A DNA stretch of 15,664 bases from a virus, in the UHGV virus genome UHGV-1775322; one strand, 5' to 3'. Below are positions 3,001 to 6,000 of the stretch, piece after piece. The number at the start of each line of letters is the position of its first letter. Within the stretch, counting starts at the first letter, position 1. The position numbers are program-made.

Positions 3001-6000
3001 TGGCTTAATTGTGAATGTTTTCTCAACCTCTGACATCTCGTGTTCAGGCGTGATCACGCCATAGCGAAAATGACAGTTTTCTGCCAGTACAGCAGCATTA
3101 TCAGGAAGCATAGATGCAATAACGCCTGGCATCATCCCGCGCATAGTGGTTATATCGATATAAGGCATGGTTATCTGGTATCCGAAAATTTGAATGGCAG
3201 ACGAGGTGGAATAATTAATCCCGGCACAATTTCACGACGTCAACCCGTACAGGAGTCGCTCTTACCGCCCGTCCACATGCAGGGAATTCGCAATGTCCGG
3301 CGAAAATGGCATCGTAAATGAAGCATGTAATCGCGCACGGGAAAAATATGGATTTCCAAAAATCTGAATATTCTCCGCCGTGCAAAAATGCGAACAACAT
3401 CACTTCACTAATCAGCCTGATATGGTATACTTAGCACGCTAACTATGATAACAAACTAATACCCTAAAACTCATTACATCGGGACTGGCCGTGGTCCCGT
3501 TTTTTTTTATTCAGCCAGCAGGCCATCCGACAACATAACTGCGGATCGCCTTCAGGTCTGTCAGCGCCTCAACCTCGGCTTTCATCTGCAACTGCCGTGT
3601 ATTAATCTCCACCCCCTTCGCAAACATCGCCTGCTCTGTCGCATCCGACAGGGCTATGATGTCTGCCGCCGTCACCGGCACCACATTATTATCCCCGTCG
3701 GTCCAGGCAAAACCTTCCGGAAGACGGTTATTCTCTGCCATCAGGCGTGTCATGCTTATCCTGGACAACGTCTTCTTGCCGTAATCCCAGTTCCTTCCGT
3801 TGAATTCCATCATGTATTCCATATTCTCCTGCACATCACGCCAGATATTAATCTCTTCCCTTTTCGCCGCTTTTGCCGCTTCCAGTACTGCTTCCGTGGC
3901 GACAAAGGCACTCACACTTCCGTACGTTCCTGCTGTCAGCCCAGACCACAATGCTTTTCCGTGTTCTGTATTATCCGTTTCCGTTGCAGTATACGGCAGC
4001 CATACCTGTTCCCCTTTTTCATTCACCGCGTCTTCAAACTGCACCTCACAGTTTATCCCGCCATATTCGTTGCTGGCTGCATTTCGTACTGCAAGAATCT
4101 CTTTTCCCTTATCCACCATGACCTCCTCTATGATATGCGCTGAAATAATCCTGCCTGTCTGATACCCGGAGATGATGTCCATAGCATCGGACCACATGCA
4201 CGCCACGTGCCCGGTAAACGGGTCTCCCCCACATTACCGGAAGCAACCAGGGGAGTACCATTCGAAAGGCAGCATGCAGACAGTGATGACCCGGCAACAG
4301 TTGAGCCAGGGGCACGGTCCCCCGAATAAAACGTCTGGTAATACGCCGCAAGAACAAAAGAACCGACACCAAACAGCCCGTTGTCAGGGCTTCCGGATGG
4401 TCCCTGTGGTCCTGCCGGACCTGCGGCTCCTGCATCCCCTTTCGGTCCCTGTGGCCCTGCCGGCCCTGCAGCTCCCGTATCCCCTTTCGGTCCCTGTGGC
4501 CCTGCCGGGCCTGCAGCTCCCGCATCCCCTTTAGGTCCCTGAGGACCTGCCGGCCCTGCAGCTCCCGTATCCCCTTTCGGTCCCTGTGGCCCTGCCGGGC
4601 CTGCAGCTCCCGCATCCCCTTTAGGTCCCTGAGGACCTGCCGGCCCTGCAGCTCCCGTATCCCCTTTCGGTCCCTGTGGGCCTGCCGGACCCGTATCGCC
4701 CTTGTCTCCCTTCGGGCCGGGAACGCCACCACCTGCAGCAACCTCTTCTGCCTTCTGTCTCGCCGCCTTGGCCTCATCCATTGCCGCCTTCACAGCCTTC
4801 GACGTGGCAGCCTTTGTTTCGTCATTACTGGCAGTATCACTACTTAGCTGCACAATTCCCTTCTGTGCCGTCGTCGCGTCCACCACATTTGCTGCGCTGC
4901 CCGCCGGACCAGGCTCCCCGCGGGGGCCCTGAGGCCCAGCTTCGCCTCGTTCACCTTTCGGACCTGCCGGACCTGTCGCACCGGCATCTCCTTTCGGTCC
5001 CTGCGGCCCCGCCGGGCCTCTCTCTCCTGCAGGTCCGCGTAGCCCCTGCTCTCCCTGAGGCCCTCGTTCTCCCGGCTCACCTTTTTCACCTGCGGGACCG
5101 GCTGGTCCGGTGTCACCTTTAGGTCCCGCATCACCTTTCGGCCCGGGTGGTCCCCCCGGGTCTCCGGGGGCTCCTTTTTCACCTCTGGCCCCGGTTTCAC
5201 CTCGTGGACCAGCAGGCCCCTGAATCCCCCGCTCTCCTTGCGGCCCCACCGGTCCTGTTTCACCGCGTGGTCCTTGTGCGCCTTGTGGACCTGTTTCTCC
5301 ACGAGGGCCTGCATCACCTTTCGGTCCGGTATCACCTTTAGGGCCTCTGGCATTCTCTGCCATACGCCTGGCCTCTTCAGCACTAACCGTAGCAGCCTCA
5401 GCACGTTTAAGAACGTCTCCGGCGGCCTCATGAGCCACTCTGGCGGTTTCAGCATGTTGTCTGGCATCATTCGCGTCTGCTGCCGCGGCCTTTTCAGACT
5501 CGCATGCCCGGGTCGCCGCTTCTGCAGCTTCACTGGCTTTTTGTCCGGCTTCAGCCGCCCTGCTGGTTGCCGTCTTTGCACTGTCAGATGCACTCTTCGC
5601 ACTGGCTGCTGCACTGTCTTTTGACTGTGTGGCCTGAGTGTTTTTTGTCGCCGTGTCTTCATTCAGGCGACGAATAGTGGCAAGGTCATCAGCCACATTA
5701 TTCTGTATCTGCCGGAAATCTGTCAGCAGTTCTCCGGGTATGCTCACCTCAACAAGACTGCGGCGTAACAGCATATTGAGCGTCACCGTACTTTCGGTCC
5801 CCTCAATACGCACACGTCCGTAGACAGCAGTCTTCCCTTTCACCGTCACCGAAACCGCATACTCCCCCGGATCCATCGTCATTCCGTAATATCCACCTTC
5901 ACGGGTCACTGCCGACGCACTGGTGCCGCTGAGCGCATCCGGTGAAACTGTCAGCGCCGTCAGGGTAATATTTGCTCCTGATATCGCCTCACCATCAGGA

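Follow-up and report, generated by a model that had tools for sequence, protein, structure and literature searches.

The analysed window, i.e., the whole stretch of 15,664 nucleotides of the UHGV virus genome UHGV-1775322, carries a gap of exactly 342 bp (3169-3510) between the gene for a 541-aa virion protein and the DUF4376 gene in the tfa position, just where the original prediction had placed it. No other intergenic gap between minus-strand genes is as large, the runner-up being approximately 157 nt long (10427-10583). The features of the gap and its surroundings are the following:

1543-3168, minus strand: virion gene for a 541-aa protein, belonging to the Sepvirinae backbone and coming first downstream of the gap in the late operon
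3169-3205, minus strand: 37-nt leader directly upstream of the 541-aa gene, conserved backbone sequence, not imported
3206-3253, no strand: orphan 48 nt at the left junction, with no significant similarity to ykgJ alleles
3215-3403, minus strand: 62-codon ORF, which frame comparison identifies as the antisense shadow of the ykgJ remnant and not as a gene
3254-3367, plus strand: YkgJ-family (PF03692, CxxCxxCC) pseudogene remnant, with codons 77-109 at 3266-3364 and the TGA stop at 3365-3367
3264-4718, no strand: cassette common to a lambdoid prophage (blastn), comprising the ykgJ' end, flank, terminator, DUF4376 gene and tail-fibre C-terminus
3318-3434, plus strand: 38-codon ORF, not a gene; it overlaps the ykgJ remnant in a different frame and extends into the flank
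3368-3479, plus strand: 3' flank (former 3' UTR) of the donor ykgJ-like gene, 95% identical to prophage L002
3404-3431, plus strand: sigma-70 promoter-like match, TTCACT-16-TATACT with TG upstream (9/12 matches)
3480-3508, plus strand: predicted intrinsic terminator of the donor ykgJ-like transcription unit (8-bp stem, 4-nt loop, T9)
3511-4206, minus strand: DUF4376 gene occupying the tfa position and belonging to the imported cassette (PF14301, E 1e-16; PHROG 1141)

The 541-aa gene matched PHROG 511 'internal virion protein' (E 7e-278, profile positions 319-859 of 862) and its product was 96% identical to Stx-phage homologues, e.g., P13374 ORF67/68. On the other side of the gap, the DUF4376 gene was 93% identical to the DUF4376 gene of the lambdoid prophage L002, and its true start lies probably downstream of the listed GTG. 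The description of the gap as AT-rich was correct in direction, its GC content being 0.439 versus 0.524 for the window (the lowest 3% of 342-nt windows), but the effect is modest. It stems from the 3368-3479 segment, with a GC content of 0.366.

The left end of the gap is occupied by backbone DNA. The leader was identical in 34 of its 37 nt to the sequence at the equivalent position in the Stx2a phage P13374 (L004), with which backbone identity reaches approximately 3200; with the relative L005 it ends at the start codon of the 541-aa gene (3168). The adjacent segment, 3206-3253, was compared with seven ykgJ alleles and gave local alignment scores inside the shuffle distribution. Since these alignments were no better than those of shuffles, the ykgJ remnant could not be extended leftwards, and the 48 nt stay an orphan. 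They were found only in the 17 E. coli genomes sharing the left junction and in four IMG/VR contigs.

Homology to ykgJ begins at GTCGCTCT (CDS nt 175), at position 3254. The plus-strand segment 3266-3367 represents the last 33 residues and the stop codon of a 109-aa YkgJ-family protein: in the tblastn comparison, the intact 109-aa protein of L002 aligned over residues 77-109 to 3266-3364 with 97% identity (E 1e-18), and the stop codon was in register. The intact L002 protein matched PF03692 with an E-value of 8e-12, and the remnant was approximately 79% identical at the DNA level to the chromosomal ykgJ of K-12 over 82 nt. Nothing in the window corresponds to residues 1-76, which include C7-x2-C10-x2-C13C14, so a domain of full length (about 85 profile positions) is missing from it. 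Upstream of 3266, the reading frame is interrupted by in-frame stop codons and has no start codon, hence there is no intact ORF. As the CxxCxxCC cluster is absent, the element is a pseudogene fragment and not a functional member of the YkgJ family. The pseudogene status of this stretch is already known from the RefSeq annotation of L001, a prophage 99.8% identical to the window; both there and in the sister prophage L003, RefSeq (PGAP) labels it as 'YkgJ family cysteine cluster protein, incomplete, missing N-terminus'. This recognisable protein-coding remnant at plus 3266-3367 had been missed at the first reading of the region.

The window retains CDS nt 229-330 of ykgJ and a 9-nt junction stub (nt 175-183), and the full 175-330 stretch survives in L003. 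Relative to L003, both the window and L001 have a 45-bp deletion between 3262 and 3263, with ACCG microhomology at the deletion ends; the L003 copy has a 2-nt insertion of its own, leading to a frameshift. Judging from the alignment of these copies, deletion and frameshift are eroding the remnant. Intact versions of the ykgJ-like gene occur in lambdoid E. coli prophages, where they are convergent with the tfa-position gene. The ykgJ-like gene also faces the last tail-fibre gene in lambdoid prophages at potB, at dusA, and near trpA, where it is often frameshifted. A search of the phage collection with the gap returned two matching records only (1720a-02 and P-EibE), both over the ykgJ end alone, and the search for split ykgJ copies with the L011 allele yielded nothing useful, being dominated by matches to chromosomal ykgJ.

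The recognition of the ykgJ remnant changed the view of the two small ORFs. The minus-strand 'Cys-rich' ORF, predicted as 61 codons at 3215-3400, is present and has 62 codons, but it is an antisense shadow frame of ykgJ and not a gene. Where ykgJ is intact, as in L002, this frame continues without a stop for 122 codons across the gene, and the diverged alleles L007 and L009 have no start codon at the corresponding position. The variable columns among the intact ykgJ alleles fall on codon positions 1, 2, and 3 of ykgJ in the numbers of 23, 17, and 71, respectively, which implies that selection acts on the plus-strand ykgJ frame; the wobble positions of ykgJ (71 of 111 variable columns) are the first codon positions of the minus-strand ORF. 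Its length is also shifted by the 45-bp indel between the sister prophages. The plus-strand ORF of 38 codons was likewise found at 3318-3434 as predicted, but it is not conserved and not a gene either: it is cut to 21 codons in L003 and has another C-terminus and length in L007 and L009.

These data bear directly on the proposal of a type I toxin-antitoxin-like or small-protein module, in which the minus-strand 62-codon (or the plus-strand 38-codon) ORF would be translated under the control of an antisense plus-strand RNA. Both ORFs are indeed there, the N-terminal half of the minus-strand ORF is fairly hydrophobic, and the geometry is suitable, as the leader of the minus-strand ORF would be complementary to the predicted plus-strand RNA. 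The promoter match on which this RNA depends is, however, at chance level and due to a private SNP. No conserved small toxin ORF was found, the Pfam search of both small ORFs gave no match, the Rfam search revealed no toxin-antitoxin RNA, and phages of this type have their real Hok/Gef locus at another place. Taken with the shadow-frame nature of the minus-strand ORF, the missing start in the diverged alleles, the concentration of substitutions on the ykgJ wobble positions, the effect of the 45-bp indel, and the truncation of the plus-strand ORF in L003, the comparison with relatives has largely refuted this reading, which we consider extremely improbable.

The promoter itself was examined next to the copies of the region in other prophages. 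An extended -10 sequence does exist at 3404-3431, as noticed before, but the match does not rise above chance: the scan gave one site locally versus 1.5 expected in shuffles, and nine versus 12.2 across the window. T3426, which creates the TATACT version of the -10 hexamer, is private to the window, and every other examined copy has C at this position (CATNNT), the -10 reading CATACT, CATGAT, CATAGT, CATGGT, or CATGCT. The -35-like hexamer is gone in L023 and L024. Sigma-70 hexamers that are both above chance and conserved were thus not found at 3404-3431, and on these sequence comparisons the site is probably not a real promoter. The prediction of a plus-strand RNA of approximately 70 nt consequently lost its footing, its basis being a chance-level match made by a private SNP.

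Two of the checks suggested together with this RNA were carried out and gave it no backing. The Rfam 15 scan of 3000-3700 in the E-value mode produced noise only, with best scores of 18 bits for sbrA (gathering score 45) and 15 bits for snoR113 (gathering score 47); in the gathering-threshold scan of the entire window, nothing reached the gathering score. Folding of 3438-3510 (z = -1.1) revealed nothing beyond the terminator hairpin, and there was no structure signal beyond the terminator in 3368-3510 (z +0.3) or in the minus strand of 3169-3515 (z -1.1).

The sequence of the strong predicted plus-strand terminator opposing the late operon was, on the other hand, confirmed, with a shift of its left boundary by one nucleotide (3480-3508 in place of 3481-3508). 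The hairpin CGGGACTG-GCCG-TGGTCCCG, followed by T9, has five GC pairs in its 8-bp stem and a predicted energy of -11.6 kcal/mol. It thus has the GC-rich hairpin and the U-tract of an intrinsic terminator, and, T9 included, only 2 nt separate it from the tfa stop codon (3511-3513). In eight copies whose flanks are 80-95% identical, the stem is invariant and a single loop base varies. The terminator looks to be, as far as these alignments go, the sole constrained part of the gap.

The flank and the terminator form a module of approximately 140 nt, which in lambdoid prophages accompanies whichever tail-fibre or tfa gene comes last. It was present in 58 of 5426 E. coli genomes, at prophage ends located at potB, yecE, tRNA-Ser, ompW, and zinT, and the copies beside tail-fibre genes at five attachment sites showed 80-95% identity. 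Strains of E. coli O104:H4 have a 93.6% identical copy at another chromosomal location, apparently within a lambdoid prophage. Among the GTDB species representatives, no match to the module pattern was found, and a shorter pattern gave only chance matches in unrelated taxa. Such a distribution means that the conservation may be a matter of recent ancestry; it could reflect either a function beyond the terminator or recent spread within E. coli.

A function beyond the terminator might be a small regulatory RNA encoded by the conserved module (3368-3510) and ending at T9, either the RNA of approximately 70 nt starting from the extended -10 or a 3'-UTR-derived species, which would have been carried in passively and may still be made. 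Its architecture would resemble that of Hfq-type RNAs, in which an A/U-rich 5' part with no structure precedes a GC hairpin and a long U-tract. The module is kept beside tail-fibre genes at the five attachment sites with or without ykgJ upstream, all copies have TG and a CAT..T motif at the -10 position, and the C-to-T change in the window improves the -10 hexamer. Against this stand the chance level of the promoter match, the variation of -10 positions 4-5 and the unconserved -35-like hexamer in L023 and L024, the lack of an Rfam match, and a structure signal limited to the terminator. The putative RNA body is also less conserved than the block upstream of it, the opposite of what a seed region would lead one to expect, and the hairpin sequence was absent from the papers covered by the full-text literature search. 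We therefore regard this reading as quite unlikely. Its more specific form, in which 3368-3510 would be an undescribed prophage sRNA gene or a source of a 3'-UTR-derived sRNA (A/U-rich body, invariant hairpin, U8-9), moved into the Stx-like podophage by a cassette swap and with its -10 strengthened by the C-to-T change, strikes us as a decidedly long shot.

A role of the hairpin on the other strand was also considered. Co-opted in the late operon, it might act in the minus-strand transcript as a 3' stabiliser, a processing site, or a partial attenuator setting the ratio of tail-fibre/tfa to the 541-aa and 424-aa products, which would be compatible with an origin of the gap by recombination. 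The location of the hairpin 2 nt past the tfa stop codon fits this idea, as do the similar minus-strand hairpins with U-tracts at other gene boundaries of the operon (7725-7707, 8165-8148, and 10567-10542). The invariance of the stem across copies with diverging flanks fits as well, but it is equally explained by the plus-strand terminator role in the donor. In the minus-strand view, the 3480-3508 hairpin is preceded by A9 and has no U-tract after it, and the minus-strand terminator scan called none at this place. Moreover, P13374 and L005, which have other cassettes, do without the hairpin and yet contain the same downstream genes. Altogether, such co-option appears unlikely.

The origin of the gap became apparent from the mosaic map. 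In the blastn comparisons, 3264-4718 was 93.3% identical to the lambdoid prophage L002, and the flanking backbone corresponded to L005 (98.5% for 1-3168 and 99.2% for 4463-15593). Both flanks of the cassette belong to the short-tailed Stx-phage-like (Sepvirinae) backbone, and the right crossover falls within the collagen-like repeats of the tail-fibre gene, at about 4398-4718. At the same site, L005 and the Stx2a phage P13374 (Sepvirinae) have other cassettes, a cor-type and a gp38-type. Thus, a block of foreign ancestry is inserted into a backbone collinear on both sides, with alternative blocks in the relatives. The possibility that the site is a junction of two tandem prophages was rejected because the same backbone is continuous across it in the complete phage P13374 and in L005.

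The left junction is common to only 17 of 142 matching E. coli genomes, and among the matches listed, the rows of lower coverage (H18-H20) show similarity beginning at about 3264. In L001, the leftovers are nested: a gp38 cassette is followed by a C-terminal tfa pseudogene, then by the terminator and ykgJ'. At the equivalent place, P13374 contains an older remnant of the ykgJ end, 51 nt long and 73% identical. Going by these leftovers in L001 and P13374, a serial exchange of cassettes is visible at this site. The closest donor found was only about 93-95% identical.

On this basis, we propose that the gap is very probably a recombination scar located where modules of a short-tailed Stx-like (Sepvirinae-type) prophage meet, consisting of the ykgJ' end, its flank, and its terminator, left by a cassette swap. 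The host-range cassette, with the C-terminus of the tail fibre and the DUF4376 gene in the tfa position, would have been imported from a lambdoid prophage. In such a donor, the tfa-position gene would be the last gene of the late operon, facing a convergent accessory gene, the prophage copy of ykgJ. On the right, the crossover would have taken place within the collagen-like repeats of the tail-fibre gene, and on the left, the incoming DNA would end inside the donor ykgJ-like gene; hence the 3' end of this gene (3254-3367), the flank (3368-3479), and the terminator (3480-3508) would have come along. The earlier view that the gap stands outside the conserved structural set proved right in this respect: it is imported DNA from an accessory ('moron'-type) locus of another phage.

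At present, the late transcript would cross the segment leftward and provide for the expression of the 541-aa and 424-aa virion genes. Such read-through would be possible because the minus-strand hairpin has no U-tract after it, and it would be further helped by the fact that late transcription in Stx-type phages is Q-antiterminated. The plus-strand terminator could do no more than halt stray antisense transcripts, both small ORFs and the promoter-like sequence would be by-products, and the segment itself is most plausibly silent. A working small-RNA or toxin module did not emerge from the analysis: what lies in the gap is the 3' third of a ykgJ-like gene with its flank and terminator, deprived of the start codon, the CxxCxxCC cluster, and a promoter of its own.

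In all probability, then, recombination of an ordinary kind left a scar here, and the gap is no novel module for a small RNA or a toxin; in itself this result matters little. It does explain an odd gap as the footprint left when lambdoid siphophages and short-tailed Stx-like phages exchanged a host-range module, and it points to the site just downstream of the receptor-binding cassette as a place that gathers leftover DNA, with nested remnants in the sister prophages. It also calls for caution in assigning small ORFs or sRNAs to such gaps, as here the 'Cys-rich ORF' proved to shadow a dead gene on the opposite strand, and the 'promoter' to be a private SNP.

The closest known counterparts are the YkgJ-family (PF03692, CxxCxxCC/UPF0153) genes and pseudogenes at the tail-fibre end of lambdoid E. 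coli prophages. Like the remnant in the window, they are convergent with and adjacent to a DUF4376 gene and are followed by the same flank and terminator. In contrast to them, the window keeps codons 77-109 only, having neither the N-terminal Cys cluster, nor the start codon, nor the promoter, and the remnant is located inside the late operon of a podovirus-type (Sepvirinae) prophage and not at the end of a lambdoid one. The presence of ykgJ-homologous DNA in lambdoid prophages has already been reported: Nakamura et al. 2021 described attB-in-PP_2, a ykgJ/ecpE-derived secondary attachment site within lambdoid prophages (PMC8112680). Both this site and the window remnant are prophage-captured ykgJ-homologous DNA beyond the tail-fibre genes. 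The exact 96 bp of the site are given only in a figure (PMC8112680), so its position had to be deduced. The 309-bp homology in Sakai Sp15 maps to nt -192 to +114 of the K-12 ykgJ CDS, and the E110019 fragment linked to the effector-gene (nleF/nleH) locus maps to ykgJ nt -6 to +91, which together would place attB-in-PP_2 at the 5' end of ykgJ. The identity of the remnant with attB-in-PP_2 was rejected, as the window has CDS nt 229-330 and the stub of nt 175-183.

With morons, the gap shares DNA derived from an accessory, non-structural transcription unit that has kept its terminator and lower GC content. The proposal of a moron-type insertion is therefore correct as to the source of the DNA, but with the promoter and the 5' two-thirds of the gene gone, the element is better described as a moron remnant. 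The general pattern is that of tail-fibre/host-range cassette mosaicism, with a block of foreign ancestry in a collinear backbone, alternative cassettes in relatives, and nested leftovers as in L001. The window departs from it in nothing essential; the exchange here took place between siphovirus-type lambdoid and short-tailed Stx-like phages, and a recognisable gene fragment marks its left end.

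Every long ORF in the window is encoded on the minus strand, and the set makes up a phage late operon (terminase, portal, N4-gp56-type capsid, SU10-type adaptor, collagen-repeat tail fibre, a DUF4376 gene in the tfa position, a 541-aa virion protein, and a 424-aa tail-tip fibre). The predicted gap was confirmed: it covers exactly 3169-3510, from the 541-aa gene (1543-3168) to the DUF4376 gene (3511-4206), and no intergenic gap of the operon is larger. Its description as AT-rich held in part: the GC content of 0.439 (window, 0.524) falls in the lowest 3% of 342-nt windows, a value driven by 3368-3479 (GC 0.366). 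The gene called tfa in the original prediction (3511-4206, minus) encodes a DUF4376 (PF14301) protein, not a Caudo_TAP-type Tfa. Two points place its true start probably downstream of 4206: a 79-nt overlap with the tail-fibre stop when the listed GTG is used, and a length of 223 aa for the homologue in L002, a lambdoid prophage at potB. The match of the 541-aa protein (1543-3168, minus) to PHROG 511 ("internal virion protein") was limited to positions 319-859 of 862; homologues from phages of Vibrio, Ralstonia, and Burkholderia (<60% identity) may be longer, and the N-terminal third of the Stx-phage form may be missing or encoded by another gene.

When 3100-3560 was compared by megablast with complete E. 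coli genomes, the match carried the RefSeq label "YkgJ family cysteine cluster protein". In the prophage of strain cM8a (99.8% identical) the match is annotated as a pseudogene "missing N-terminus", and in other prophages an intact 109-aa YkgJ-family gene (PF03692, CxxCxxCC family) underlies it. The plus-strand translation of 33 residues, with its stop codon at 3365-3367, shares 97% identity (E 1e-18) with residues 77-109 of the intact protein; DNA identity to the K-12 chromosomal ykgJ is about 79%. The original prediction had overlooked this plus-strand fragment at 3266-3367. The window retains nothing upstream of codon 77, neither the Cys cluster nor a start codon nor a promoter. We consider it highly probable that the gap is a recombination scar, composed of the dead 3' end of a ykgJ-like gene, the flank of the donor, and its terminator:

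3169-3205, leader of the 541-aa gene, conserved backbone sequence
3206-3253, 48 orphan nt without significant similarity to any ykgJ allele
3254-3262, GTCGCTCTT, start of collinearity with ykgJ (CDS nt 175), clearest in the sister prophage L003
3262/3263, point at which 45 bp present in L003 are deleted, ACCG at both flanks
3266-3367, plus strand, ykgJ codons 77-109 and stop codon
3368-3479, 3' flank of the donor gene
3480-3508, plus strand, terminator of the donor gene

The L003 copy has a 2-nt insertion of its own; together with the 45-bp deletion in the window, this indicates that the remnant is decaying independently across sister lineages.

Both predicted small ORFs are present where they had been placed; neither could be upheld as a gene, and neither had a match in Pfam. 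The minus-strand ORF (62 codons) is the antisense frame of ykgJ. The same frame is open for 122 codons in the intact gene of L002, the diverged alleles of L007 and L009 lack a start codon at the corresponding position, and an indel alters the ORF length by 15 codons between sister prophages. Among five intact ykgJ alleles, variable columns numbered 23/17/71 at ykgJ codon positions 1/2/3 (8/3/25 in the last 32 codons). As variation concentrates at the ykgJ wobble positions, which are the first positions of the minus ORF, selection acts on ykgJ, not on its shadow. The plus-strand ORF (38 codons) begins at an internal out-of-frame ATG, and a point change in L003 cuts it to 21 codons.

The origin of the scar was traced to a cassette swap by pairwise blastn of the window against individual loci, which resolved a clear mosaic. 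Positions 1-3168 matched L005, a prophage of the same phage type, at 98.5%, and 1-3200 matched Stx2a phage P13374 (Sepvirinae, genus Oslovirus) at 93%; 3264-4718 matched L002 at 93.3%, and 4463-15593 matched L005 at 99.2%. In L002 the DUF4376 gene and the intact ykgJ-like gene are convergent. The imported block begins within ykgJ, covers the 3' flank of that gene, the terminator, and the DUF4376 gene, and extends into the collagen-like repeats of the tail-fibre gene, where the right crossover probably fell. This Gly-X-Y region (4398-4718 and 4960-5194; tail-fibre gene 4128-6032, minus) gave many internal and cross-phage blastn matches, and its coincidence with the right crossover suggests that the repeats are a recombination substrate for host-range swaps between lambdoid phages and those of Sepvirinae type.

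The left junction of the window was found in only 17 of 142 matching genomes. On the same backbone, P13374 carries a gp38-type receptor-recognition gene at the site and a non-coding gap of about 170-230 nt before the 541-aa gene, and L005 carries a cor-containing cassette and its own non-coding gap of about 340 nt. The cM8a prophage (L001, 6069-6700) has a nested scar (gp38 cassette, C-terminal DUF4376 pseudogene, terminator, ykgJ', in this order): in a later event, a gp38-type cassette replaced most of the DUF4376 gene, with ~630 nt of leftover DNA ahead of the 541-aa gene. P13374, the canonical O104:H4 Stx2a phage, retains a 51-nt relic of the ykgJ 3' end (L004, ~6895-6945, between gp38-like ORF66 and ORF67) at the corresponding place before the 541-aa gene, adjoining its 37-nt leader (34/37 nt as in the window). 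The relic, only 73% identical, is older than the remnant in the window; given this identity and the shared position, ykgJ-flanked cassettes entered this phage lineage more than once, or long ago. The alternative cassettes, the nested event, and the relic demonstrate that the site downstream of the receptor-binding cassette collects leftovers of successive exchanges.

The predicted plus-strand terminator is present: at 3480-3508 a hairpin runs into T9 and ends 2 nt short of the tfa stop codon. With the ykgJ 3' flank it forms a ~140-nt module (3368-3510) found in 58 of 5426 complete E. coli genomes, always directly beyond the last tail-fibre/tfa gene of lambdoid prophages. Module-bearing prophages reside at potB (L002, L021), yecE (L019), tRNA-Ser near hyaA (L022, L025), ompW (L023), and zinT (L024), with ykgJ upstream in some copies and absent in others. 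In prophages without ykgJ (L019, L022, L025; yecE and tRNA-Ser), similarity to the window (3358-3368) starts at AAAATCTGAAT, the last ykgJ codons and stop codon, which suggests an ancestral arrangement of ykgJ plus module that has lost ykgJ by deletion. The stem of the hairpin does not vary among copies, and the flanks are 80-95% identical; judged by this comparison, only the module/terminator looks constrained within the gap. On the simplest reading, it stops transcription that comes in at the end of the prophage, whether from ykgJ or from host genes, and runs antisense to the tail genes. The module was not found in other GTDB species representatives, so its conservation may reflect recent spread.

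Read on the minus strand, the hairpin (3480-3508) has A9 before it and AUGUAAUGAG after it, and was therefore not called as a terminator. Late transcription in Stx-type phages is Q-antiterminated, and such a transcript should pass the hairpin to reach the 541-aa and 424-aa genes. Canonical terminator-like hairpin-plus-U sites also occur on the minus strand at other gene boundaries of the operon, at 7725-7707 (after the 129-aa gene), 8165-8148 (after the capsid gene), and 10567-10542 (after the portal gene). They imply that read-through would be routine and are consistent with an antiterminated late transcript.

A ~70-nt plus-strand RNA had been proposed to end at the terminator. The promoter-like sequence (TTCACT-16-TATACT with TG upstream, 3404-3431) is present, but shuffling the sequence gives as many such matches or more (1 found versus 1.5 expected locally, 9 versus 12.2 window-wide). 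T3426, which makes the -10 hexamer TATACT, occurs in the window only; all other copies compared (L001, L002, L003, six IMG/VR contigs, and five further loci) have C. More diverged copies read CATGAT, CATAGT, CATGGT, or CATGCT at this position, and two of them have lost the -35-like hexamer. Rfam searches returned noise only and folding gave the terminator hairpin alone; nothing in these analyses speaks in favour of the RNA. The residual novel reading, a small RNA encoded by the conserved module that flanks tail-fibre genes, is very improbable. Directly after the -10-like hexamer lies a near-palindrome, TTAGCACGCTAA (5+2+5; 3432-3443), conserved in L002, L019, and L021-L025 (as TTAGTACGCTAA in L023), which may bind a protein or be coincidental. 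Separately, L022 showed an Rfam match to isrC, an Hfq-binding sRNA (4962-5084, 150 bits), overlapping an IS3-family transposase gene and adjoining the tail-fibre/Lom region of this degraded lambdoid prophage; the match has no relation to the gap of the window.

Altogether, the original prediction located the features accurately but overstated their significance; of its interpretation, the foreign, non-structural nature of the DNA stands and the remainder does not. Lambdoid prophages with ykgJ-homologous DNA were described by Nakamura et al. 2021 (PMC8112680), who named it attB-in-PP_2, a 96-bp secondary attachment site that with its flanks spans 309 bp at 84% identity to K-12 ykgJ/ecpE. We mapped the Sakai Sp15 homology to nt -192 to +114 of the K-12 ykgJ CDS (309 bp, 83.8%) and the E110019 fragment adjoining the nleF/nleH effector genes to nt -6 to +91, coordinates that would place attB-in-PP_2 at the ykgJ 5' end. 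The remnant in the window, nt 229-330 with a 9-nt junction stub, would not contain that site. Compared with other known systems, the element is the remnant of a moron, not a moron, and does not qualify as a type I toxin-antitoxin module. Both ykgJ-homologous DNA in lambdoid prophages and the YkgJ pseudogene call are already known, and the element is most aptly classed as a YkgJ-family pseudogene fragment, of a kind recognised by PGAP, within a tail-fibre cassette scar.
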